Source of the DNA: an uncultured Peptostreptococcaceae bacterium
GTDB lineage: Bacteria > Bacillota > Clostridia > Peptostreptococcales > Acidaminobacteraceae
Assembly (NCBI GenBank): GCA_964424355.1
Contig: CAYRIO010000014.1
Location: 2,890 to 66,889, forward strand
DNA: 64,000 nucleotides
Reading direction: 5' to 3'
Part shown: positions 3,856-62,985 of the stretch, piece after piece
How the letters are laid out: every line of letters begins with the position of its first letter
Position numbering within the stretch: position 1 is the stretch's first letter
Position numbers and translations under genes: made by a program
The notes under the pieces: generated by a model
The model's input: only the letters and a program-made list of their open reading frames with translations
Told to the model about the DNA's origin: nothing
Database searches by the model: none

Positions 3856-4899
3856 CTACTCAAAATAAGATTTGATCTGCTCATCCATAACCCTGTTGGC
3901 TTCTGCACTACCTAAGTACGCTTTATACCACTCAATTGTTCTTCCCAAAGCCATATCAATATGCCACTGGGGTCTCCAGCCCGTGGCACTTTTGATCTTC
4001 GAGCAATCCAGCTTCAGATAATTCGCTTCGTGGGGTCCTTGAATGGGATCACTGAACCATTCCAGACCTTCTCCCCATTTCTCGCAGAACAATTTTGCCA
4101 GAGCGCCGGTGGTTTTGACATCTTCCTCATCCGGTCCAACATTGTACGCCCCTTCATAGCGCCGGTCGTTAAACTGCATTTCGGCAATCATCAAATAGGC
4201 GCCAACAGCCTCCAGGACATGCTGGTAAGGCCTGATGGAATTGGGATTTCTGATGAAAATCCGTTCCCCCTTAGAAGCCGCCCGGACGCAGTCGGGTATG
4301 ATTCGGTCTGGCGCGAAGTCGCCACCGCCAATCACATTGCCGGCCCTTGCCGTTGAAATACTCAAATCCCTGAGATCAAAAAAAGCTCGCTTATAGCACT
4401 GTGTAATCATATCCGAGCAGGATTTGCTGTTTGAATAGGGATCAAATCCATCCAAAACATCATTTTCTCGATAGCCCCAGGCCCATTCCTTATTCTCGTA
4501 AACCTTGTCAGTTGTCACGTTGACGACCGATTTCACTGTATCACAGGCCCTGACAGACTCCATGAAGTTAACCGTCCCCATGATATTGGTCTCGTAGGTC
4601 AAATGAGGGTCCACGTATGAGGCCCGCACAATGGCTTGAGCCGCCATATGAAGCGCAATTTCCGCACCGGACGCCCGCATGCATTGCCTGAGGGAAGCCA
4701 GATCCCGGATGTCACCGATGACAGAAAACATCTCCTTTTCACACCCCGTGATCGAAAACAAATCCGGCTCAGTGGGCGGATCAAGAGAATAGCCTGTGAC
4801 CTCGGCCCCGGCGTTTATCAACGCTCTGCACATCCACGCGCCTTTGAAGCCCGTATGTCCGGTGATAAAAACCTTTTTCCCCTTGAAAAATTCAAGCAT
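3856..4899 (-). CDS. rfbG: CDP-glucose 4,6-dehydratase
   Basis: KKVFITGHTGFKGAWM is a Rossmann motif, and YSNSK is the SDR catalytic motif. The C-terminal half is RfbG-like. The ATG at 4899 lies 6 nt after GAGGTG. Confidence 0.9.
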   Translation of the reverse strand: MLEFFKGKKVFITGHTGFKGAWMCRALINAGAEVTGYSLDPPTEPDLFSITGCEKEMFSVIGDIRDLASLRQCMRASGAEIALHMAAQAIVRASYVDPHLTYETNIMGTVNFMESVRACDTVKSVVNVTTDKVYENKEWAWGYRENDVLDGFDPYSNSKSCSDMITQCYKRAFFDLRDLSISTARAGNVIGGGDFAPDRIIPDCVRAASKGERIFIRNPNSIRPYQHVLEAVGAYLMIAEMQFNDRRYEGAYNVGPDEEDVKTTGALAKLFCEKWGEGLEWFSDPIQGPHEANYLKLDCSKIKSATGWRPQWHIDMALGRTIEWYKAYLGSAEANRVMDEQIKSYFE

Positions 4900-40043: not shown

Positions 40044-40493
40044 TCACCGCATCCGCGTTGAAAGGCCACGGCTCTGAAACCGGCCGCTCGCCCCACCACC
40101 CGAAAAAGTAGCCGCTGAACGCACAACCTGCGGCGCTGAAAGAGCTATACAATCATAACAATGCCGACCTGTCGAAATGGATGCACCGCATTTTTCACAC
40201 CGCAGCAATCCGGCCATGGCCGACTCTGGCGTGAGGCTTAGGGTCTCCTGGCGAACCATCCGGTTCAATTGGGTGATTGAGATCTTCAACTCCTTCGAAA
40301 TCGTCTGCATCGGCACATTGTTGCCCTTGGCGTAGATATAGCCCCGTACGATGCTCACACGGACCGACTCGTCGCTGATACACTGCAGACAGCCCTCCGG
40401 GTGCCCTTGAACGTGTGAATAGATTTCACCGCAGGTCTTGCACTCTTTTGGATCAATGGCAATTTCCTCATCAAAATATCGCGTAGAGAACAT
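40044..40493 (-). CDS. zinc-ribbon plus HTH protein, possibly YvyF/TIGR03826-like
   Basis: CKTCGE...CLQC and CEKCG...CYDC Cys pairs flank an HTH-like segment (PMQTISKELKISITQLNRMVRQ). The family assignment is tentative. Confidence 0.45.
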   Translation of the reverse strand: MFSTRYFDEEIAIDPKECKTCGEIYSHVQGHPEGCLQCISDESVRVSIVRGYIYAKGNNVPMQTISKELKISITQLNRMVRQETLSLTPESAMAGLLRCEKCGASISTGRHCYDCIALSAPQVVRSAATFSGGGASGRFQSRGLSTRMR

Positions 40494-40773
40494 GGTACCT
40501 TCCTCCTTCATAATCGTTGATATGCCCCTTGGCACAAACGATCAAAAAATAGAAAAGAGCAGCAGAATGAGCCTGCTACTCATCGTTGGCGGCCCGGCGG
40601 TCATAGTCCGAAGACCTTAGATCCGTAGCTTTGCGTCCCGCTCTTTCGAACGGTTTGCCATTATCAGTGATTGGTACGTATGTACATTATAGCATATTCC
40701 GTTACTGGCCAATAGCCGCAATTTTCGTCCTGATGGGTGGGGCTGGCAGTATCACAACACGTGCAGTCCCCAG

Positions 40774-41985
40774 CTATATCTGTTCATGAAGCAGAAAATC
40801 AGGGATATAGCGATGCAGAATGCCCTGCCTTCCCATATCAAATCGATCCATGGATAAAACGTATTTCGGGTAATTGTCCTCAATGGCCAGCAACGATCCG
40901 AATTCCCGTTCCACTGTTTCATCCGACGCCAAAAGATACGCTACCTGCAAGTAAATTCTTTGGCCTGCCTTTTCGCACACAAAATCGACTTCCCGGTTCC
41001 CCACTCGCCCTACCCGGACAGCGTAGCCACGGCGAAGCATCTCCATATAGACGATATTCTCCAGGATGCGCTGAATGTCTCGTTGGTTATTACCGTATAC
41101 CGCTTGCCGAATCCCATGGTCTGCAACATAGTACTTTTCATTCACCTGCAGAATCTGCTTGCCAACGAGGTCGATTCGGGGCACCCGATGAAACAGAAAC
41201 GCTTCCTCACACCCTCTGAGGTGGTTCATAACCGTTTCCGGCGCCACTTTTCGCCCTTCACTCTTGAAGTATTTCGAAATGGCATTGGCAGAGAAGGTTT
41301 CCCCAACATGTGCAATGACATAGAGGAGAATGCGTTCCAGTAAGTCTACATCTCTAAACTGATTCCGCTTCATCACATCCTTGATTAGAACTGAACTGTA
41401 AATATCCTTCAGGTATTGTGCGACAGCAGCAGGTTCCTCACTGAAATGCCGGAGAAACGGAAATCCGCCGAACTGAATATACCTGTCAAATTGCCAGTCT
41501 ATGGTCTGATGTTCGCCTTCACGCTGGTACAACGCAGTGAACTCTTCAAAGGAAAACGGAAACACATGAATTTCGATATATCGCCCCGCAAGGAATGTGG
41601 CCAGCTCACCCGATAGCAGCTTTGCATTGGAACCCGTTATGTAGATATCAAACGCACCTTTAGAAAGAAGGGAGTTGATACAGCGTTCCCATTCCTCCAC
41701 CTCTTGGATTTCATCAAAAAATAGATAGCGAAGTTCTGGATTTTCCGTAGCCTTTGCCATCACGGCTTCGTGGAGTTTGGCCGCTTCTGTCAGATCCGCG
41801 TTGGCCATATCTTCAAAGTTCAGCGCCAGTATCTGATGTTCCTTCACGCCGCGTTCCTTTAGCACCTCTTGAATGAGATCCAGCATGACGGATTTTCCGC
41901 ACCGACGGATGCCCGTGAGCACCTTTATCACCTGCTTATCCATGAACGGTCGCACTTTGCGAATATACATTTCTCGCTTGATCAT
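40774..41985 (-). CDS. AAA+ ATPase with a DUF4143-type C-terminal domain
   Basis: The Walker A region is TGIRRCGKS and the Walker B region is LFFDEIQ. The size and C-terminal half are typical of the family. Confidence 0.85.
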   Translation of the reverse strand: MIKREMYIRKVRPFMDKQVIKVLTGIRRCGKSVMLDLIQEVLKERGVKEHQILALNFEDMANADLTEAAKLHEAVMAKATENPELRYLFFDEIQEVEEWERCINSLLSKGAFDIYITGSNAKLLSGELATFLAGRYIEIHVFPFSFEEFTALYQREGEHQTIDWQFDRYIQFGGFPFLRHFSEEPAAVAQYLKDIYSSVLIKDVMKRNQFRDVDLLERILLYVIAHVGETFSANAISKYFKSEGRKVAPETVMNHLRGCEEAFLFHRVPRIDLVGKQILQVNEKYYVADHGIRQAVYGNNQRDIQRILENIVYMEMLRRGYAVRVGRVGNREVDFVCEKAGQRIYLQVAYLLASDETVEREFGSLLAIEDNYPKYVLSMDRFDMGRQGILHRYIPDFLLHEQI

Positions 41986-42217: not shown

Positions 42218-42228
42218 TATTCCATCTC
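42218..42228. repeat. att core copy distal to guaA
   Basis: TATTCCATCTC is identical to 61445-61455. The minus-strand reading here gives ...GIEME-stop, which mimics the guaA C-terminus ...GTIEME-stop. Confidence 0.7.
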
Positions 42229-42350: not shown

Positions 42351-42680
42351 AACACAGTGCCACCTCGGAACGCTGACTATCATCGCCAAACAAAATGATC
42401 AAGGTTATATCAAAGGGAGAATTGTGCCTAATTGAACAAGTGTGCTATTTATCTTTTTTGTGTTAACCCTTGCATCTTGCTAAATTGATTTACGATACCG
42501 CGCTTCCATATTTATGGTATATCAAGTTTTTCAAATGCATAATGTGAGTTGGTCGACTCGCGTATCTTCATGAATATTCCTACTTACAAACACAAAAAAA
42601 ACGAGATAAATCTCACCTTTTCGTGTTGATATTAAGACTGCAATTATCTGTTCCAAGCAAAAAATGGATTTCAACAAGAG

Positions 42681-43067
42681 TTAATCTATTGCATTTTCGA
42701 TACTATCTTTACGACATGCTACAACTGATATCCCTTTCTCTTTCCAGTATGTAGCGACGGCATTGGTAGCGCACGTATCCACCGCAATAATTGTCTTTCC
42801 TTTCCCAATTGCATAGTCTATTTCTTTACGCCCCATGCTCCCTACCATTACAGCCGCAGGACGTGCAGGTGCAAGAACCACACTCGCGCTGTCAATCTTA
42901 CCTTTAATAGCAGTAGTCACTTCTCTAACGGTCCCAACCAATGGATTTGAACTCTCAACCGACCTATCAGATACATCATATTTTGTCCGATCAATTGCCG
43001 CACTGATTTTATCAAAATCGTCTTTATAATCCCAACGGTGACTTATGAACACATTTTTCTTTGCCAT
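42681..43067 (-). CDS. small TIR-like protein (ThsB/DUF1863-like), 128 aa
   Basis: MAKKNVFISHRWDYKDD is the beta-A strand motif. ...SVVLAP... and GRKEIDYAIGKGKTIIAV carry a conserved Glu82 in the position of the ThsB catalytic Glu. The RBS is GGAGGG. Confidence 0.65.
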   Translation of the reverse strand: MAKKNVFISHRWDYKDDFDKISAAIDRTKYDVSDRSVESSNPLVGTVREVTTAIKGKIDSASVVLAPARPAAVMVGSMGRKEIDYAIGKGKTIIAVDTCATNAVATYWKEKGISVVACRKDSIENAID

Positions 43068-43190
43068 TATTCAACCCTCCATTTTTATTTCCATAGGTGC
43101 AATGTAAGTTTTGTGTACAATAAACAACCAGCAATCCATCGTCAGTAGCTAAACAGAGATGCCACATTATTAAAAGTTATCGACATGATT

Positions 43191-44159
43191 CTATATCGTA
43201 TTCTTTTTTGCAAGTTGCCAATAGTGTTGCCCTTGTACGGTTAATTTACAAAATTTGCGATTGATCGCTGCATAATACATGTGTTCGGCACCTACAGGTA
43301 CCACTAAGTTGAGTTTAACATATTTTTGCAAAATGGCAAATATTGCTTCATGAGCTTTGTCCACTTCTTTCGTGTCTGCTTCATGCTTATCTGGCTCATA
43401 TGTTGGATCTAAAGCAAATTCATCATATGGCGTACTGAAAAACTCTGTAATTCTACGCAATTCGGCTATTTCAATCGGTGGTGAATTCTTTCTTAGAGAT
43501 ACAAAGCCGCTAATATTTGCTTTAAAAATCGGTCGTTGCTCCCACCATCCAAGAGAACGATCGATATACGAATAAATGCTGCCAGGAGAAACTTCCCCAA
43601 GTAGATTCATAGCACCGCCATATAATGCTTCAATCAGCAAAGTTGTAAATACTCCATGTCCATTTTCCTCAGATGAATATTGCTTTTCATCGCATGCAGC
43701 TAGTATAGTAGTTCCCTTATGTAATACTGAATAATGTTGCATTTGATTGGAGCTAGCTACAAGCCCACTATGGCAGCTATCAAGTATCACAACTTTGTTA
43801 CTCGCTTTTGATTGAGCTACAATACCCATTAGATCATTCAAGGATAAACCCTCGTCTACACGGCCCACTTCACTTGTACATAGATATCCACCAAGAGCAT
43901 CATATGAGCCATGTCCAGCATAATATAACACAGCTATCTCCGATTGACCTTCAAAAAGCTCCTGAATCGCATCTTTTAGAATCCCTCTTGTAATGTATGA
44001 TGCATCACTAGTCGCACACAACAACTTGGTTTGAAAGTTCAATGTGCCATCTCCATTACGTTCCAACACAGCATTTACTCCATTTGCATCATTGACGCAC
44101 CCGTGTAAAGCTTTAATTTTTTCATAACTGTCAATTCCAACACATAATGCTTTTCTCAT
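43191..44159 (-). CDS. caspase-like (peptidase C14) protease with an uncharacterised C-terminal domain
   Basis: ALCVGIDSY and LHGCVNDA are present. The catalytic His lies in VLYYAGHG (His83) and the catalytic Cys in VVILDSCHSG (Cys129). The last 130 aa or so match nothing I recognise. The RBS is AAGGAGG. Confidence 0.8.
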   Translation of the reverse strand: MRKALCVGIDSYEKIKALHGCVNDANGVNAVLERNGDGTLNFQTKLLCATSDASYITRGILKDAIQELFEGQSEIAVLYYAGHGSYDALGGYLCTSEVGRVDEGLSLNDLMGIVAQSKASNKVVILDSCHSGLVASSNQMQHYSVLHKGTTILAACDEKQYSSEENGHGVFTTLLIEALYGGAMNLLGEVSPGSIYSYIDRSLGWWEQRPIFKANISGFVSLRKNSPPIEIAELRRITEFFSTPYDEFALDPTYEPDKHEADTKEVDKAHEAIFAILQKYVKLNLVVPVGAEHMYYAAINRKFCKLTVQGQHYWQLAKKNTI

Positions 44160-44287
44160 TATATTTGCCTCCTTAATTCCTTTACAATAGTTATACTCCG
44201 ACCGAATTTATCCAACACTTTATGCATGAAAACGAAAAGTGCTTGCACGCATCCATCATACCTAGTCATTATCGCAAAACTGTAAAA

Positions 44288-45955
44288 TCATATGTCCCTA
44301 TACTTTAACAACAGCTCATATTCATTCATTCTATCAATCAAGTGATTGTTAAGCTGCTCAGCTCTTTTAAAACCATTGATCCCAAGTATTGATCTATACG
44401 GTGAATCAGTAAACACTTTTATACACCTTAGAATATCATCAGCCAAAGAGCTGTTCGCTCCGTTTTCGTCAACATTATTCTTAAAATCCATGCTATTTAA
44501 AAAATCAACTATTTCTTGAGATGCTTGCTGAGGATCATAGTTTCTGTTCCCTGTCTCTATACCCAGCTTTGAGCGAATGTAGCCAAGATCATTTTGGGCA
44601 AACACCTTACTGAGGAATATTATCAAAGTTTCTTTTAGCATTTCAATGTCTCTATTGTTGACAATAACGCGAGTACTCATATAAAAGTACTGCAATCTTG
44701 AAAAAGTCTCTTCAAACGTATCTTTACAGAAACGTTCTACATCACTTTGTTTTATTTTAGTTCGCGCAAAGGGTAAGAACTTTTTTTCGAACCACTCCGC
44801 AGCTGTTCGTATTCCCCATCTGTCTTTGCCATTGATATAAGATATCGATTTGTGGTTCAAATCAACGAAGTCACTTATGTCAACATAAACAGTAACGTAG
44901 TCATGTTGAATGCTGTCATCTTTCACCGCTCTATATATCACATGTTCACCCGCGTTTAGATTCCGATTGTATGAAATAACCGGACTATACACATGAATAT
45001 AGTTATAGTTGCGTTGAAAAATATGCCACTCGCTTTTTCCATTGTCCCAATCATAATTATTCGCAAAATCAATTAGTTCGAGCCAGAGACTTCGATCAAT
45101 ACTTGCGATTTTATATGCGCACACACCGTCCAACATTTTATAATTTTCCACTTCATAACCAACTTCATACTTTCTCAAGTTCATAATATAATTTTCTTTA
45201 TTATCATGTATACATTTGAGAAATTGATCAACACTGTTCTCTTTTATTGGCATAAAAAAAGCATCTGATGCAAATTGCTTAATATGTCCATTCGCCCACT
45301 CCCAATCACGATATTCCCGGAGAAACAAGTCTGTTGTTTGTTTGTGACTCAATAAGATCACAGTATCTTTGTATAATATTCTTGTTGATAATCTAGGCGG
45401 TGTACCATCACACATTATTTCAATATTTACTTCATCTTCATCAATTTTTTCTATTAGTGAAATCGGAACATTATCCCAATCGCATTCTTTTTGGGAGTTA
45501 TCCCTGCTCGTATCAAGACTATGTCTCAGGCGATTCAAAGATCTCTCGTAATGTGCATCTGATGACATATCATGATAGTCCATCGTATCTAATTTTCTTG
45601 GCAAAAATTCACTTTCCTTTTCCTGTTTTGCCAATACAAACAGCAACGATTCTTTTTTCCGTTGACTTCGCTTGATTATATTATCCATTTCAATTTCAAC
45701 ATGCGAGCGCATTTTATCCGAATATGGTTTGTTAGCTTTCTTAACGTATGAAGGTGTCACAATAATCAATATGTAATCGGCTTCATCCATTTCATCAGCT
45801 ATAAAGCGTGAAATATCGCGACCCCCAACTTGGCCTTCATCTTGGTCGTAAACAATCGAATATTTTTCACTATTTAGGTCCGTAATCAGCTTTTTAATTA
45901 AACGAGTATCTGTATCGTCTCTGCTATAACTAATATAAATTTTTGCTTTTTCCAT
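44288..45955 (-). CDS. TIR-domain protein with a C-terminal domain of about 400 aa and unknown function
   Basis: The ATG at 45955 follows AAGGAGGTG. KIYISYSRDD, YILIIVTPSYVKK, SHVEIEMDN (candidate catalytic Glu) and LLFVL form a bacterial TIR core. The remainder is unrecognised. Confidence 0.75.
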   Translation of the reverse strand: MEKAKIYISYSRDDTDTRLIKKLITDLNSEKYSIVYDQDEGQVGGRDISRFIADEMDEADYILIIVTPSYVKKANKPYSDKMRSHVEIEMDNIIKRSQRKKESLLFVLAKQEKESEFLPRKLDTMDYHDMSSDAHYERSLNRLRHSLDTSRDNSQKECDWDNVPISLIEKIDEDEVNIEIMCDGTPPRLSTRILYKDTVILLSHKQTTDLFLREYRDWEWANGHIKQFASDAFFMPIKENSVDQFLKCIHDNKENYIMNLRKYEVGYEVENYKMLDGVCAYKIASIDRSLWLELIDFANNYDWDNGKSEWHIFQRNYNYIHVYSPVISYNRNLNAGEHVIYRAVKDDSIQHDYVTVYVDISDFVDLNHKSISYINGKDRWGIRTAAEWFEKKFLPFARTKIKQSDVERFCKDTFEETFSRLQYFYMSTRVIVNNRDIEMLKETLIIFLSKVFAQNDLGYIRSKLGIETGNRNYDPQQASQEIVDFLNSMDFKNNVDENGANSSLADDILRCIKVFTDSPYRSILGINGFKRAEQLNNHLIDRMNEYELLLKYRDI

Positions 45956-45993: not shown

Positions 45994-47337
45994 TTAGAAA
46001 TAATGGCTCACCAGCATATCTCCCAACAATTTCAACGCGCTTTCCTCTTCGGGATCGTTCGTTCCTAGTTCTCCACGAAAGGCACGAGCAAGGATGGATT
46101 TTTTCATGGAATTAATCAAATCCAAAGTGTCACAAAGTTCCTCTGCCTTTTGCTCTTTTGCAACAATGTCATCAAGAATGATTGATATTTTTTCTTGCTC
46201 AATATAAGTAAAATTTGGTACAGGTATTTGACCTACTATACCTTCGTTAAGGTTTTTCATCGTGATACCTTTTGCATTTACTTCTAGATATTCTACCGTT
46301 GCCTGGCTAGACAAAATCCGCGAATACAACAATCCGCTATACGCTTCTGGCATGCGGATTCTGACACTACCAGTTCCACACAACCATCCATTTTCATTGC
46401 TTGAAACGTACGCCGTACGCCCCATTTCACCTCTTCTGGCCATGATTATGTCATTTTCTTTCAGCTTATATTTCGATAATTCCTCTGCCTTTTCTTTAGA
46501 TATTGTGACACTATCTTGTGGAAATATCTTTTGATTAACTATGTGCTTCGGATTTATAACAGGAATACCGCCTTCAATGTAATCTTTAGCATGAAGCATT
46601 GTTCCAAATGGTCCAATTTTGATTTCCTGAGCAATTGTCTTCAACTCAACAATCGAGGGAATAGCACCAATCAATTCCCCACTAAAAGCCTTATGAAGAA
46701 TGGCCGCCTTCCGATTTTCAAAGGAATCCAGCGCATCCTGAATAAGCCCTTTTGCCTGATCCAGCTTTTCAAAAAGGCTTTCAATGCTGTCGACGATGCG
46801 TTGTTGCTCGGGGAGGGGAGGGAGAGGAAATGGGAGAGTGGACATTTTCCCTTTATTTACAATAGATATCGTTGTCGCTGAAGCAAGGTTTCGGAGCTCA
46901 TTAACGAAAGACTCTGAATTGCAGTAGTAGTATGTAAACAATTTGTTGAATTTAGGTATCAGTGTATTTATTTGCTGGTTCGTAGTTGATTCCATCTCAA
47001 TATATCCGCACTTACCAATGGTTCCGATACAACATACACTTGTAGAACCTGATGGGATGATTCTTGACACACTTCTCCCCTTATCAGTTAAATACTCTGA
47101 TGCAAAGTTCACATGCCTTCCTTGATCAAGATCCGCAGGCTTAACAAACGGAAAACTACCTCCATAGAACTCATTATTGTTCTTGCTTGGAGTCCCGCCA
47201 GTTACAATATCGGATACTTCGTTAAGCCTCACCCAAACCCAATTTTCCAGCACCTGATATGGCTGCTCACCCTCTGGCACCAATGCCTGTTCCAACAGTT
47301 CCTTCGGCGTTAAATCCTTCGCATTAACCTTCGCCAT
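45994..47337 (-). CDS. hsdS: type I restriction-modification specificity subunit
   Basis: Two target-recognition halves are each followed by a conserved helix (LPPLPEQQRIVDSIESLFEKLDQAKGL and EQEKISIILDDIVAKEQKAEEL). Confidence 0.9.
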   Translation of the reverse strand: MAKVNAKDLTPKELLEQALVPEGEQPYQVLENWVWVRLNEVSDIVTGGTPSKNNNEFYGGSFPFVKPADLDQGRHVNFASEYLTDKGRSVSRIIPSGSTSVCCIGTIGKCGYIEMESTTNQQINTLIPKFNKLFTYYYCNSESFVNELRNLASATTISIVNKGKMSTLPFPLPPLPEQQRIVDSIESLFEKLDQAKGLIQDALDSFENRKAAILHKAFSGELIGAIPSIVELKTIAQEIKIGPFGTMLHAKDYIEGGIPVINPKHIVNQKIFPQDSVTISKEKAEELSKYKLKENDIIMARRGEMGRTAYVSSNENGWLCGTGSVRIRMPEAYSGLLYSRILSSQATVEYLEVNAKGITMKNLNEGIVGQIPVPNFTYIEQEKISIILDDIVAKEQKAEELCDTLDLINSMKKSILARAFRGELGTNDPEEESALKLLGDMLVSHYF

Positions 47338-47339
47338 GA

Positions 47340-48749
47340 TTACTTTCCCTCCAACGAACGGAGTTCCTTCACCACGCTCTGAATCAAGTCTACAGCCTCT
47401 TCCAGCTTGGCAATGATTTCTTCGCCGCTTTCGATGGGGTCCTGCAGGTCTTCATAATCCAGAATGCTATCATCCCGAATAAGCCCCAGGTCTAGGCTGT
47501 TGTTCTTGGCCGCTATCTGCTCACGGGTATAGCAATTAAACCGCTCATCCTTCACTTGGGTCCGGTCTTCAGCAGTATAGGCTTTGATAAAGTCTTCAAA
47601 ATGCTCTTCCTTCAAGGTGTTGGTCTTGCCAAAGTTCTGCATATTGGTGCGAAGATCGAAGAACCATACATCCTTGGTATTGCCCTTTTCTGCCTTGCCA
47701 CGGGTAAAGAAAAGCACATTGGTCTTAACCCCTTGAGCATAGAAAATACCAGTGGGCAGACGCAGGATGGTGTGTAGATTGCATTTATCCATCAAGTCAG
47801 CTCGAATAGACGCGCCATCCCCATCGGCAAACAGCACATTGTCCGGTAAAATCACTGCCGCTCTGCCGTTAGTGTCTAGGCTTCGGTAGATGTGCTGTAG
47901 AAAATTCAGCTGTTTGTTTGAGGATGGATAGACCAAGTCTTTTCGTGTAGCACGCTCTCCACCTTTCTTGGTTCCAAAAGGCGGATTAGTAAGCACCACA
48001 TCAAAGTACTTCATCGTCTCACCCTGACTAGACAGGGTATCGGCCAGCAGGATCTTTCCGTCAATATCATGAAGCATAGCATTCATCAAAGCCAAACGGT
48101 GGGTTTCGTGAACCAGCTCACAGCCGGTGAAAGCCTTGTTAATTTGGAAGTTTTGCTGATCCACTGATAGCACTTCCAAGTTACTCGTTTGGTCTTTAAT
48201 ATGTCGGTCTGCCGCTATCATAAAACCAAATGTGCCACAGGCTGGATCGTTGCACCGCTCACCGGGTTTGGGATCAATCAGCTTTGTCATAATATTGATC
48301 AGCACACGGGGCGTAAAATACTGCCCCGCACCGGATTTCTTCTCATTAGCATTTTTCTCAAGCAAGCCTTCGTACAGGTTGCCAAGCCCTTCTTCCCGTG
48401 CAGAATACCAGTCCAAGGCATCAATAGAGGTAATGATTTTTTCTAAGTTCTTAGGCTCTTCAATATTGGAACGGGAGCCTGCATAGATTTCACGAATGCG
48501 GCCCGTACATTCTTCACCTAGGTGGGTAAGGAGTTTAAGATAGTACTTTTTCAGTTCAATACCGGATTTGCCCACCAGCTCATCCCATCGGTAGGCTTCA
48601 GGAATGGCGCTTTCCGTAGCGGTTTCTTTAGCCATTTTCAAAAATAGAATATATGTTAGCTCGGTAACATACTGATGATAGGTAATGCCATCATCACGAA
48701 GCACATTACACAGGTTCCAAAGCTTTGCTACGATCTCTTGATTATTCAT
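47340..48749 (-). CDS. hsdM: type I R-M N6-adenine DNA methyltransferase subunit
   Basis: An N-terminal HsdM_N-like segment (LWNLCNVLRDDG) is present, with DPACGTFGF (motif I) and VLTNPPFG (motif IV). Confidence 0.9.
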   Translation of the reverse strand: MNNQEIVAKLWNLCNVLRDDGITYHQYVTELTYILFLKMAKETATESAIPEAYRWDELVGKSGIELKKYYLKLLTHLGEECTGRIREIYAGSRSNIEEPKNLEKIITSIDALDWYSAREEGLGNLYEGLLEKNANEKKSGAGQYFTPRVLINIMTKLIDPKPGERCNDPACGTFGFMIAADRHIKDQTSNLEVLSVDQQNFQINKAFTGCELVHETHRLALMNAMLHDIDGKILLADTLSSQGETMKYFDVVLTNPPFGTKKGGERATRKDLVYPSSNKQLNFLQHIYRSLDTNGRAAVILPDNVLFADGDGASIRADLMDKCNLHTILRLPTGIFYAQGVKTNVLFFTRGKAEKGNTKDVWFFDLRTNMQNFGKTNTLKEEHFEDFIKAYTAEDRTQVKDERFNCYTREQIAAKNNSLDLGLIRDDSILDYEDLQDPIESGEEIIAKLEEAVDLIQSVVKELRSLEGK

Positions 48750-51700
48750 GATGCCACATTGCCTCCGTCGTCATATAGATAGTCGTTCAGCTCGTCCAAT
48801 ACTTCATCCAGTTTTTCATCAAAGATTTTGTTCACGCGACCAAAGCCACCCTGCTTTTTGAAAGCTCCTGTATCGAAAGATTCCTTAGTGATGACCGATT
48901 CGTTCATCAGGTATTTTTCCATGCGCTCAATCCAGCCCATTTCCATCCTGCTGAATTTGTGATTCTTTTTCAGCCGTTCAACTGCCCGTTTGATTCGCTC
49001 TTCATGGTTAAGAAGCGCCGAACCTAGGGCTTGCTGGCGAATGAGGCTGATGATATCTGCTGCAATATCCTCATTCTTGAGTTCTTTAAGAGCAGTATTG
49101 AGCTGCTGTTCTGTAAATTGGTGTCGGTCTAATTCAAGCTTCAAGCTTTTAAGACTCTCACGGGTCAGCTCTTTCGGTCGTGTACACACCACATTCAGGG
49201 CAGCAATTTGGTTCATGTTTTCTGTAATAAATACTCTGAATTCCTCCAGATAGTCTCCTGGCTTTTTCCCATTATAGTCTCGCGTATGACTACGAAGCTC
49301 ATCCTGTTTTTGTGAAATGACAACGGGTTTCCGGAAACCTGTACCCCCTTCATTCAACAGTTCGAACAGTTTCTTGTGTTTCAGAATATGGGCTTTGGCC
49401 AGTTCTGCAGGCATGGATTTAATCAGTTCAATAAATCCTGTGGGGCTTAATCCACCGGAAAGATCCACAAAATGCTCCATGGTTTTTTCTGAAATGTCTC
49501 TTTTTTTCCGTTGTAGTTTAGCTAAGATCATATCGATCTGGCTTTCTACCTGACGCTCTGTATGTAATACCTCCAAGCCGCCTAGCAAATCATCAAACGT
49601 TGTTGTTGCATTGGCTACAACCGGTTTCATGGTGCTCACCGGCTGCAGAGATTCGTAGACCCCTACAGGATCATAGATTTCGAAATGGGTTTTTCGGATG
49701 GCAGGGCAAAGCCTTGTGGCGCGACCGACCATCTGTTCAAACAAAATCCGTGATTTAACCCGCCGCATAAACACAAGGGTGCTAATTTCAGGCACATCAA
49801 TTCCCGTTGTCAGCAAATCCACCGTAACCACAACGTTGGGGTATTTTTCATTCTTAAATTTTTTAATGGCTTCCATGATCTTCTTCTTATTTCCACCCGC
49901 CACACTGCCGGTAATTTTCATAATGGCTTCGTGATCTACACCCCGGGGCTCATAAATCTCTTTTAGAATTTTAACAATCATATCTGCATGAGCATCATCC
50001 ACGGCAAAGATTAAGGTTTTCCCTTCTCCATCCGGATCTAACTCAATTGCGATTTCTTCCAAATTCACACGGTTAAAAGACTCCGTTATCACCCTACGAT
50101 TAAACGTGTCCACATCAAAACGAATCTCATCTTCAATTTCATCACTATTAGTTATTTCTCCAGTGACCGGATCATAAATTACAACGGTTTCACCTTTTTG
50201 AAACACAATACCATCTTCACTCAACTTGGTTGTAAGGGTGTGAGGCGCATCGTGGTCCACTAAGTAGCCTTCTATAACCGCTTCACGATAGGTGTAGTTG
50301 AAGACGGGTTTTCCGAAAATTTCAGTCGTATGTAAAGCAGGGGTTGCAGTTAAGGCGACTTTTACAGCATCAAAGTAATCCATTACCGAACGGTACTTGC
50401 TAACGTAGTCATCCTGATTCCGGTACAGAATTTCATCCTCATCCATTTCTTTATCCAGAATATAGCCTCGGTGAGCTTCATCCACCACAATCAGGTCATA
50501 ATCGGATATGGCTGGAATTATATTCCCTTCATTGAACATAATCCGCTTCACCATACTCTGGACTGTGGCGATCTGGATCTTAGTTTCTTTCTCAGGTATG
50601 CTCTCCCCAAGGTTTTTAATATCGTAGATCTCATCCAAGGTCATAAGTTCTTCGATTTTCACCTCTTTAAACACGTCTTGAGCCTGTTCACCAAGGGCAG
50701 AACGATCTACCATGAACAAGATTCGTCTAAACCGATCGGTTTTCAGGAAGCGATAGATCATCCCCAACACCGTACGCGTTTTTCCGGTTCCGGTAGCCAT
50801 AGACAGAAGAACAGTATCCCTGCCGTTAATAACGGCATTTTCAGCGGCTTTAATAGCTTGTACCTGATAATCCCGCAGGTTAAGACCGTCTGGATCAGTT
50901 AAAAGGTCGTATTCATAGTTCTGAAGCTTGTGGTTGGCTGCTTCGATATCCTTTTCCAGCAATTCGCTGATTCCAGAAGGGCTCATCCACCCCTGCTGAA
51001 CCTTTGGAATGTTATAAGGCTTACGAACATCCAAACACCAGATGCCGGACTTGGTTTCTAGCTGTTTCAGATACTTTCGCCCGTTAGTTGCAAAGAGCAA
51101 AGGTACTTTATAACCGTCCCACTGGCCGACCATATACTCCTCATCTTCGTCTTTTATTCCTTTTGCATAATCTTTGCACTGGTAATCAATCACAGAGGGA
51201 ATATCAGCAGCCATTCGTTTGGCTTCGATGATGCCCACCAGTTTCAAGTCTACGAAAAGAGCATAATCTGCATATCCGTGGTCCCCAACGGTGGAATTGG
51301 TGGGCCATTCTGCAATAGCCAAGTTCCTGCCTTTCTCCGGCCGGGTTCCTTTAGAGTAGCGAAAATTCACCGTATCGACTTCCCAGCCCACAAGTCGTAA
51401 CTGTGCATCAATCAGATAGCGGGTTTCCTGTTCCGACAGTTCCATCATCTTGAGGGCAGATGAAGCCCGTTCAACGCGCTCAGATTTTGACACAACTTTT
51501 AAAGGCTTTTGGTTCTTTAGCTGCTCATTCAGTTGCTCAATAAGAGCTTCTTTATCTTTAAGGAGTGATTCATAGTCCACATCATTCCGCTGATCTTGAG
51601 GACTCACGAAAGTTTCCGCTTGGTACTGCCAATCTCCATAGGTCTGCATAAACCAAATAGCCAAGGTGTGTGCCATTTCGAGACGGATTTTACACTCTTC

Positions 51701-52009
51701 AAAATCATCATAATTGTCGTGTACGGCTTTATTTCGGGTCATACGGAGGGCATATAGGATATCGTCAATGCTCTTTGAAAGCAGGCCTTCTTTTTTCAGG
51801 ATCTTAATCCGGCTGGCGTGGGTGTCGTTAGAGTCCGGCCGTGGAATGTCATCCAGTTGAAGCATCAAATTAACAATGGTCTCACCGAATAGTCCCAACT
51901 TGATCAGGCAGGAGTTGGTGTCTGAATATAGATATTTTTCCGCAGTACTCCCAAGATTCATCAGTACAGGAAAAGTGGCATCTAAGAAACTGAAATTCGA
52001 TCCCATCAT
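48746..52009 (-). CDS. hsdR: type I restriction endonuclease R subunit with an N-terminal DUF4145-like extension
   Basis: Walker A is MATGTGKT and the DEAH box is VVDEAHRG. Helicase motif VI, QMVGRATR, is present. The gene overlaps hsdM by 4 nt. Confidence 0.9.
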   Translation of the reverse strand: MMGSNFSFLDATFPVLMNLGSTAEKYLYSDTNSCLIKLGLFGETIVNLMLQLDDIPRPDSNDTHASRIKILKKEGLLSKSIDDILYALRMTRNKAVHDNYDDFEECKIRLEMAHTLAIWFMQTYGDWQYQAETFVSPQDQRNDVDYESLLKDKEALIEQLNEQLKNQKPLKVVSKSERVERASSALKMMELSEQETRYLIDAQLRLVGWEVDTVNFRYSKGTRPEKGRNLAIAEWPTNSTVGDHGYADYALFVDLKLVGIIEAKRMAADIPSVIDYQCKDYAKGIKDEDEEYMVGQWDGYKVPLLFATNGRKYLKQLETKSGIWCLDVRKPYNIPKVQQGWMSPSGISELLEKDIEAANHKLQNYEYDLLTDPDGLNLRDYQVQAIKAAENAVINGRDTVLLSMATGTGKTRTVLGMIYRFLKTDRFRRILFMVDRSALGEQAQDVFKEVKIEELMTLDEIYDIKNLGESIPEKETKIQIATVQSMVKRIMFNEGNIIPAISDYDLIVVDEAHRGYILDKEMDEDEILYRNQDDYVSKYRSVMDYFDAVKVALTATPALHTTEIFGKPVFNYTYREAVIEGYLVDHDAPHTLTTKLSEDGIVFQKGETVVIYDPVTGEITNSDEIEDEIRFDVDTFNRRVITESFNRVNLEEIAIELDPDGEGKTLIFAVDDAHADMIVKILKEIYEPRGVDHEAIMKITGSVAGGNKKKIMEAIKKFKNEKYPNVVVTVDLLTTGIDVPEISTLVFMRRVKSRILFEQMVGRATRLCPAIRKTHFEIYDPVGVYESLQPVSTMKPVVANATTTFDDLLGGLEVLHTERQVESQIDMILAKLQRKKRDISEKTMEHFVDLSGGLSPTGFIELIKSMPAELAKAHILKHKKLFELLNEGGTGFRKPVVISQKQDELRSHTRDYNGKKPGDYLEEFRVFITENMNQIAALNVVCTRPKELTRESLKSLKLELDRHQFTEQQLNTALKELKNEDIAADIISLIRQQALGSALLNHEERIKRAVERLKKNHKFSRMEMGWIERMEKYLMNESVITKESFDTGAFKKQGGFGRVNKIFDEKLDEVLDELNDYLYDDGGNVAS

Positions 52010-61443: not shown

Positions 61444-62985
61444 CTATTCCATCTCTATAGTCCCCGGCGGTTTCCCCGTGCAGTCATAGAACACACGGTT
61501 CACGCCTTTGACTTCATTTACGATTCGTGTCGTTACTTTGCCCAACAGCTCCCAGGGCAGCTCTGCACTTTCCGCTGTCATGAAGTCGGAGGTGGTGACG
61601 GCCCGAAGTACGACGGCATAGTCGTAGGTTCTAAAATCTCCCATGACGCCGACGGAGCGCATGTTGGTCAGGGCTGCAAAGTACTGGTTGATCTCTTTAT
61701 CGACACCGGCTTTTGCGACCTCTTCACGGTAGATGGCATCGGCTTCCTGGACGATTTTCACCTTTTCCGCGGTGACTTCGCCGATGATGCGGATCCCTAG
61801 ACCGGGGCCGGGGAAGGGCTGCCGGAATACCAGCTCGTGGGGGATACCCAGCTCCAGCCCTGCTTTTCGCACTTCATCCTTAAAGAGCATCCGAAGGGGC
61901 TCGACGATTTCTTTGAAGTCCACACAATCGGGGAGTCCGCCCACGTTGTGGTGGGATTTGATGACTGCGGATTCTCCATGGCCACTTTCGATGACATCGG
62001 GATAGATGGTTCCCTGAACCAGGAAGTCCACGGTGCCGATTTTCTTCGCTTCTTCTTCGAACACGCGGATGAATTCTTCCCCGATGACCTTTCGCTTGGC
62101 CTCCGGCTCTTCAATGCCCTGGAGCTTTGCATAGAACCGTTCCTGGGCGTTGACCCGGATGAAGTTCAGATCATAGTCGCCCCCTGGACCGAAGACGGCT
62201 TCCACTTCATCCCCCTCATTCTTCCGAAGGAGACCATGGTCCACAAAGACGCAGGTGAGCTGGCTGCCCACTGCCTTTGAAAGCAGCACCGCGGCCACGG
62301 AGGAATCCACGCCTCCGGAAAGGGCGCAAAGCACCTTGCCGTTTCCGACCTTTTCCTTGATGGTCCGAATGGCTTCTTCCACAAAGGAATCCATCTTCCA
62401 GTCGCCCTTGCAGCCGCAGACATCCTTGACGAAGGCTCCCAGCATTTTTGTTCCTTCCTGGGTGTGGTTCACTTCCGGATGGTGCTGCATGGCATAGAGG
62501 TTCTTTTCGGTGTTTTCCATGGCTGCCACGGGGCATACCGGGGTGGAGGCCGTGATGACAAAGCCTGCCGGCACCTGTGAGATATAGTCCGTATGACTCA
62601 TCCAACAGATGGTCTTCTCGGAGACCTCCTTGAACAGCATGGATTTCCGGTCGACCGTCACTTCCGTTCTTCCGTACTCGGATACCGGCGCGGTTTCCAC
62701 CTTGCCGCCCAGTTGATGGGCCAGGAGCTGTGCGCCGTAGCACAGGCCCAGAATGGGAATCCCCATTTGGTACAGTTCCGGCTGACACTGGGGCGAATCC
62801 TCTCCATAAACGCTGTTGGGCCCCCCCGTAAGGATGATGCCCTTGGGATTGATTTGCTTGATCTCCTCAAGGGAAATCGTGTAGGGGTGCACTTCGCAGT
62901 AGACGCTCAGTTCCCTTACTCTTCTTGCAATCAGCTGATTATACTGACCACCAAAGTCCAAAACGATTATTTTTTCCTGCTGCAT
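61444..62985 (-). CDS. guaA: GMP synthase (glutamine-hydrolysing)
   Basis: The GATase Cys lies in [10 protein letters not shown] and the PP-loop is SGGVDSSV. The C-terminus KPPGTIEME is typical. It is 513 aa. Confidence 0.95.
61445..61455. repeat. att core copy overlapping the guaA stop codon
   Basis: TATTCCATCTC is identical to 42218-42228. Confidence 0.7.

Follow-up and report, generated by a model that had tools for sequence, protein, structure and literature searches.

Known Thoeris systems and the three-gene locus

In type IV Thoeris, a TIR protein makes N7-cyclic ADP-ribose (N7-cADPR), which activates a caspase-like protease, and proteins are then cut after arginine (Rousset et al., 10.1101/2024.10.24.620036). 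In the same study, the mutations E79Q in the TIR protein and C129A in the caspase abolished defence, two-gene TIR-caspase operons sufficed for defence in Escherichia coli, and the domain at the C terminus of the Pseudomonas sp. 1-7 caspase, whose catalytic cysteine is residue 129, was proposed as the signal-binding domain. bSEFIR, a system of a different layout, acts alone and depletes nicotinamide adenine dinucleotide (NAD+) by means of the SEFIR domain at its N terminus (10.1101/2022.05.11.491447; 10.1101/2024.02.11.579819). The current study concerns three adjacent genes, here called A, B, and C, in a stretch of 64,000 nucleotides (nt) from an uncultured Peptostreptococcaceae bacterium (GenBank assembly GCA_964424355.1, contig CAYRIO010000014.1), which is referred to as the window. 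Judged by their homologues, B and C are very probably an ordinary, canonical member of type IV Thoeris, composed of a ThsE caspase-like effector and a short TIR protein of the ThsB type, and A is a rare additional TIR protein whose relatives were found exclusively beside Thoeris genes.

The three genes are co-oriented open reading frames (ORFs) on the minus strand, and their coordinates in the ORF list agree with those of the first-pass annotation, which had been made from the letters and the ORF translations. The motifs quoted there are likewise present, namely, KIYISYSRDD and SHVEIEMD in A, YYAGHG (His83) and DSCHSG (Cys129) in B, and VFISHRWD together with Glu82 in C. The features of the locus are as follows.

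44288-45955, minus strand: A, 555 amino acids (aa), SEFIR-like TIR protein
45506-45955, minus strand: TIR domain of A, approximately residues 1-150 (Glu87 at 45695-45697, Glu89 at 45689-45691)
44288-45505, minus strand: C-terminal region of A, about 400 aa, novel, with invariant motifs
43191-44159, minus strand: B, 322 aa, ThsE-type caspase-like protease, predicted effector of type IV Thoeris
43590-44159, minus strand: C14 domain of B, approximately residues 1-190 (His83 at 43911-43913, Cys129 at 43773-43775)
43194-43589, minus strand: conserved C-terminal domain of B, residues 191-322
42681-43067, minus strand: C, 128 aa, short ThsB-type TIR protein (predicted catalytic Glu82 at 42822-42824)
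42594-42624, minus strand: hairpin with eight consecutive T after it, about 60 nt past the stop codon of C, from sequence and fold

The hairpin with its T-run is probably an intrinsic terminator that closes the transcription unit; it was read from the sequence and was not called by a consensus scanner. Neither a terminator-like site nor an RNA structure was found in the A-B and B-C spacers of the window.

The caspase-like protease and the short TIR protein

The assignment of B to the C14 proteases was right (Pfam Peptidase_C14, E value of 1e-17, residues 2 to 183). Its family is large, with 7152 homologues, the best 120 of which are all at least 75% identical to B and 318 to 332 aa long, nearly all of them having exactly 322 aa. 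Relatives with an E value of at most 1e-30 fall into 403 clusters (50% level), and their alignments mostly span residues 1 to 320. Within the family, His83 is invariant, Cys129 is conserved in at least 90% of the sequences, and the conserved positions of the C-terminal domain include F241, L250, E255, P288, G310, and Y313. A genome scan with a 12-sequence alignment and one genome per species detected relatives of B in at least 532 species of bacteria and archaea. Four of the loci are from genomes listed as type IV in Table S1 of Rousset et al., i.e., those of Arthrobacter sp. Soil762, Flavobacterium sp. CF108 (listed with an additional TIR), Bacillus caseinilyticus SP, and Roseovarius marisflavi DSM 29327 (L045, L051, L069, and L083), and their caspases are 50 to 53% identical to B over the full length. 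The N terminus of the Pseudomonas sp. 1-7 caspase given in Table S2 of that study (MRKALVVGI) corresponds to MRKALCVGI in B. With 91.6 bits against a cut-off of 140, B lies outside the EACC1-associated caspases (NF047832), and a PDB sequence search with B returned only metacaspases and MALT1, over the protease domain, and no solved ThsE structure.

For C, the Pfam matches are weak (TIR_2, 2.7e-3; ThsB_TIR, 0.045), and a PDB sequence search gave nothing meaningful. The PADLOC ThsB model identifies it with an E value of 6.7e-8, in agreement with the predicted TIR fold. C aligns end to end with the validated TIR protein of the E. coli 328 type IV system (26% identity, E value of 2e-10), Glu82 standing opposite Glu84, and it shares 96 of 124 residues (77%) with a TIR domain entered under "Caspase - Type IV" (cluster 2713644834; Yirmiya et al., Table S1, 10.64898/2025.12.03.692087). 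By sequence, C is therefore assigned to the class of the E. coli 328 TIR; the alignment with the Pseudomonas sp. 1-7 TIR is not significant. The detection rule of Rousset et al., a TIR_2 or ThsB match with an independent E value (i-E-value) of at most 0.1 no more than one gene away from the effector, also recovers C.

The neighborhoods of B relatives were surveyed at the species level in 78 analysable loci, with C as the seed of an iterative search. In 71 of them, a short TIR gene adjoins the caspase gene in the same orientation, located downstream of it in 23, upstream in 43, and on both sides in five, several loci having two. The conserved neighbor of the protease is hence the C-like TIR, whereas an A-like gene, which had also been considered for this role, occurs in none of the 78 loci, nor in the surroundings of the closest relatives of B. 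Between the window and other B-C modules, DNA homology extends from approximately 44172-44182, at the ribosome-binding site of B, to the stop codon of C and no farther. Since the homology ends at these two points, B and C represent a discrete, already catalogued two-gene module.

Two features of the surveyed loci are worth recording. Gene order in type IV loci divides by clade, with the TIR gene located downstream of caspases at least 64% identical to B and upstream of most caspases at 50 to 55% identity. Moreover, several type IV loci (within L016-L095) contain two TIR genes or longer TIR proteins of 277 to 314 aa.

The statement in the first-pass annotation that a TIR plus caspase-like pair with an N7-cADPR signal is known as type IV Thoeris was correct, and it is B and C that correspond to it. 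By analogy with the systems of Pseudomonas sp. 1-7 and E. coli 328, C would sense infection and convert NAD+ into N7-cADPR, B would receive the signal, probably via its conserved C-terminal domain, and activated B would cleave cellular proteins after arginine and stop phage production by abortive infection. The B-C pair offers nothing new except a further member of an abundant system that is already catalogued.

Protein A and its C-terminal region

The N-terminal part of A matches Pfam TIR_2 (E value of 2.3e-13, residues 6 to 143, 51.2 bits) and, at a lower score, SEFIR (6e-5, 23.7 bits), so that its description as a TIR protein was accurate as well. The structural model has a TIR fold, which Foldseek aligned with the TIR domains of TLR2, MyD88, and AbTir at target-normalised TM-scores of about 0.6. 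In PADLOC, A matches bSEFIR (3.8e-11). All six proteins of its family do so, with a best E value of 2.3e-24 and in the N terminus only. Glu87 and Glu89 of the SHVEIE motif are invariant in the six sequences.

The C-terminal region of about 400 residues is conserved within the family and contains the invariant motifs DWDxG..W.IFQ.N....H..SP and AD..LRC...FTD. It had been noted as unrecognised sequence, and it withstood every search applied here: the C-terminal 380 aa of five family members gave no PADLOC match at an E value of 1 or below, the region of A has no consistent Pfam match and no PDB sequence match, and a model of this part alone, with a predicted local distance difference test (pLDDT) score of 68, has no structural match better than an E value of 0.43. 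A is a SEFIR-like TIR domain joined to a large C-terminal region without a detectable relative in sequence or fold.

For the full-length model of A (mean pLDDT of 66), the top Foldseek matches are TIR-APAZ proteins of SPARTA systems (E value of about 1e-5). These matches are due to the TIR domain, and an APAZ-like C-terminal domain was rejected on the basis of TM-scores of about 0.2 and the result for the C-terminal model given above. A 324-aa SEFIR-like protein is encoded about 2.2 kb downstream of the type IV Thoeris caspase of a Chlorobium sp. (L089, 9215-10189); it has a weak N-terminal match to A (4e-6), and its C-terminal part is unrelated.

The A family and its neighbors

A search of about 5.8 billion protein clusters yielded a family of six members, one of which was added by the profile search. 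The other five are 33 to 39% identical to A. No further members came to light when metagenome and viral contigs were scanned and plasmids were searched by tblastn. All six genes are located beside Thoeris genes, as listed here with the neighbors of each.

Window (this contig): A, caspase, short TIR
L096 (metagenome): A homologue, caspase (322 aa), TIR (127 aa)
L015 (metagenome): A homologue, ThsB, caspase, TIR_2
L010 (Desulfosporosinus): A homologue, SIR2-STALD ThsA, ThsB
L013 (C. estertheticum): A homologue, insertion sequence element, ThsA, two ThsB
L012 (C. botulinum, SXBS01000021.1, 371-4859): four ThsB, PDC-M50A, and a ThsB remnant directly upstream of the A homologue

Five of the six A-family genes are co-oriented with a type I or type IV Thoeris operon and lie immediately upstream of it, at the 5' end; the sixth (L012) lies beside a ThsB array, and tblastn with B of the window or with the effectors of L010, L013, L015, and L096 found neither ThsA nor a caspase there. 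The three-gene order of the window recurs in L096, where the identities of the proteins to A, B, and C amount to 38, 40, and 44%, respectively. Since the other members are only 33 to 39% identical to A, the six loci represent about five independent lineages. The short TIR proteins beside the A homologues match several PADLOC ThsB models.

Identities between the TIR domains of the family amount to 40 to 45% within the type IV group and 49 to 64% within the type I group, compared with 31 to 41% across the groups, and the C-terminal domains are roughly equidistant without grouping by effector type. A behaves as ThsB genes do in this respect, because one and the same TIR cluster can accompany type I as well as type IV effectors (Yirmiya et al., 10.64898/2025.12.03.692087).

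In L096, a DUF4062 gene (3892-4851) directly follows the A-caspase-TIR cassette and is the third NAD-related defence gene in a row. DUF4062 is renamed NADase domain NIR in a 2026 preprint (10.64898/2026.09.04.749371).

A possible accessory of Thoeris or an independent neighbor

We favor the interpretation that A is an accessory, Thoeris-linked protein, with all modes of coupling included, over an independent bSEFIR-like NADase, and assign to it a probability of roughly 60%. The proposed link of A to the cassette holds insofar as each of the six family genes accompanies Thoeris and L096 repeats the gene order, but it does not extend to a shared core. Because B-C DNA homology stops about 20 nt upstream of B and A is missing from every one of the 78 loci, A is not part of the conserved B-C module; by these sequence comparisons it is predicted to be dispensable and is not a core component.

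The linkage to Thoeris is directly visible in the six loci, and for the mode of coupling we infer a scheme in which A would detect a phage cue through its C-terminal domain and use up NAD+ through its TIR domain. A would then either add signal for the neighboring effector, like an extra long ThsB, or add a parallel NAD+-depleting arm. A further proposal, which we make only tentatively, is that the A family might be an unrecognised class of Thoeris accessories, i.e., SEFIR-type TIR proteins with a sensor domain of their own upstream of ThsA (SIR2-SLOG) or ThsE operons, the TIR domain being tuned to the effector type. Such a class might widen the phage range or provide a back-up when phages neutralise Thoeris signalling, e.g., with sponge proteins.

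Several observations weigh against an accessory role of A or, in the last case, against the type IV assignment. All six family proteins match the model of bSEFIR, a single-gene NAD+-depleting system, and none matches ThsB, neither the PADLOC models nor PF08937. If the family were coupled to type I as well as type IV effectors, two different signals would be required, namely, 3'cADPR and N7-cADPR. The family has only six members, and the statistics rest on the five or so independent lineages. The A homologue is always separated from the Thoeris core by 128 to 292 nt, as opposed to 10 to 31 nt between the genes inside most cores; a terminator-like hairpin with a stem of 13 base pairs (bp) stands between the A homologue and ThsA in L010, and a good promoter-like site precedes the Thoeris core in L015. 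Given these signals in the spacers, the A homologue often looks like a transcription unit of its own. Finally, what ties B to the validated Pseudomonas sp. 1-7 caspase is the naming of genomes in Table S1, a stretch of nine residues at the N terminus, and homology across the family.

Much of this would fit an alternative that we regard as less likely, in which A acts on its own as a single-gene abortive-infection protein of the bSEFIR type, with a C-terminal sensor and N-terminal NAD+ depletion, and an unrelated neighbor of B and C in a defence island. An N-terminal effector followed by a large C-terminal domain is the layout typical of single-protein systems, and the profile matches, the absence of A from the surveyed B-C loci, the promoter-like and terminator-like signals, and the stepwise G+C content (35% in A, 39% in B, and 42% in C) point in the same direction. 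However, Thoeris adjacency in six of six loci is hard to obtain by chance given the low identity of the members, the two effector types, and the occurrence of Thoeris in about 8% of genomes, and the co-oriented position at the 5' end in five of them also counts against this alternative. The C-terminal region of A lacks a match to the bSEFIR model, and the Pfam score is higher for TIR_2 (51 bits) than for SEFIR (23.7 bits), which would fail the selection rule of Millman et al. (SEFIR above TIR), a rule that used HHsearch. An obligate three-component system of a new kind, in which both TIR proteins are needed and A, for example, nucleates or licenses C, is very improbable, because thousands of B-C pairs without A exist, some of them 82 to 88% identical to B, two-gene operons suffice in E. 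coli (10.1101/2024.10.24.620036), and the A family also pairs with type I ThsA, even though the order recurs in L096 with comparable divergence of the three proteins and no terminator-like site separates A, B, and C in the window.

The cassette as a whole is a known system plus a rare accessory or neighboring TIR and not a new system. The first-pass annotation had suggested either a new variant or an undescribed system. The second option falls, since the TIR cluster of C is catalogued as type IV, and the first survives in the sense that A is a rare extra TIR. Correspondingly, B and C map to type IV Thoeris, and A, which matches bSEFIR in its N-terminal domain only and has no ThsB match, does not map cleanly to a catalogued system. 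The arrangement of two TIR genes around a single protease is not unusual in itself, because an additional TIR has already been listed for type IV operons, some with gene IDs that flank the caspase (Rousset et al., Table S1, 10.1101/2024.10.24.620036).

The new element is A alone, a SEFIR-type TIR protein that is very rare, has a domain without known counterparts, and is strikingly attached to Thoeris operons. It deserves modest follow-up as one of six genes in the clusters searched, with a domain devoid of relatives and with Thoeris of two types beside it. Should A supply Thoeris signalling or serve as its back-up, this would mean that TIR signalling systems can be fitted with sensor domains dedicated to the purpose and that the role of SEFIR-type TIR domains includes Thoeris and is not confined to stand-alone NADases. 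For annotators, the family is also a caution, as automated tools would call A a bSEFIR from its N terminus alone.

Genomic setting

The location of the cassette directly downstream of a type I restriction-modification (R-M) system was borne out. The R-M operon was delimited by ORFs and by Pfam domains of the called genes in an identical contig (L001).

45994-52009, minus strand: type I R-M operon
48746-52009, minus strand: hsdR
47340-48749, minus strand: hsdM
45994-47337, minus strand: hsdS

The end of the operon and the start of A are separated by 38 nt. The start codon of A is an ATG at 45955 with an AAGGAGG ribosome-binding site 7 to 8 nt before it, and a longer ORF reaches 45979. Type I R-M systems were tested as regular neighbors of B-C modules and proved not to be.

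Farther upstream, beside guaA, genes for a tyrosine integrase, MobC/NikA, a TrbL-like protein, and an HTH-M78 protein are found in a low-G+C stretch. The mobile-element setting that had been proposed is plausible because of these genes and the low G+C content, and the A-B-C block would be the far end of a low-G+C integrative mobilisable element inserted beside guaA.

An 11-bp direct repeat, TATTCCATCTC, occurs at 42218-42228 and 61445-61455 of the window. One copy overlaps the stop codon of guaA (which ends in ..TIEME*), and the other lies about 460 nt beyond C, where the G+C content drops, in a small ORF ending in ..GIEME*. The two copies are a candidate attachment (att) core bounding a low-G+C integrative mobilisable island of about 19.2 kb; the evidence for this is weak, because chance alone would give about two 11-mer matches in a search space of this size. 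A gene for an AAA_14/DUF4143 ATPase (40774-41985, minus strand) lies just beyond the putative boundary of the island. A c-di-GMP-I riboswitch (RF01051; 40585-40669, minus strand; 75.9 bits, E value of 4e-13) is located just upstream of an ORF for a cysteine-rich protein of 163 aa (40044-40535, minus strand), which has no Pfam match.

Comparison with known systems

Type IV Thoeris is the closest counterpart of the B-C pair. B is a full-length homologue of the effector with the C14 His/Cys dyad and the conserved C-terminal domain, and C is a minimal TIR protein of about 125 aa with a predicted catalytic glutamate, encoded next to B and in the same orientation. The window differs from the validated Pseudomonas operon, in which the TIR gene precedes the caspase gene, by the reverse order, which is that of the whole Firmicutes-type clade. 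The B-C spacer is 123 nt long, whereas most close relatives have 13 to 31 nt, and the gene for a 555-aa SEFIR-like TIR protein is found upstream.

With bSEFIR (Millman et al. 2022), A shares the SEFIR/TIR-type domain at the N terminus, the long C-terminal region that follows it, and, throughout the family, the match to the PADLOC profile. In contrast to bSEFIR, the match stems from the N-terminal domain only and leaves the C-terminal 380 aa without a counterpart, TIR_2 outscores SEFIR in Pfam, and the family was never seen alone but always, in six loci, beside Thoeris genes.

A resembles ThsB in its predicted TIR fold, the invariant Glu87 and Glu89, and the adjacency to Thoeris genes, and it differs in that its family lies outside the ThsB sequence profiles. 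In comparison with Thoeris operons and islands that contain multiple ThsB genes, the extra TIR proteins of the 78 loci have 85 to 314 aa, and ThsB profiles match the ones that were checked in A-family loci, whereas A has 555 aa, is of the SEFIR type, and carries a domain seen nowhere else. The locus nevertheless shares with these operons the presence of more than one TIR gene around a single effector and the association of the same TIR family with different effector types.

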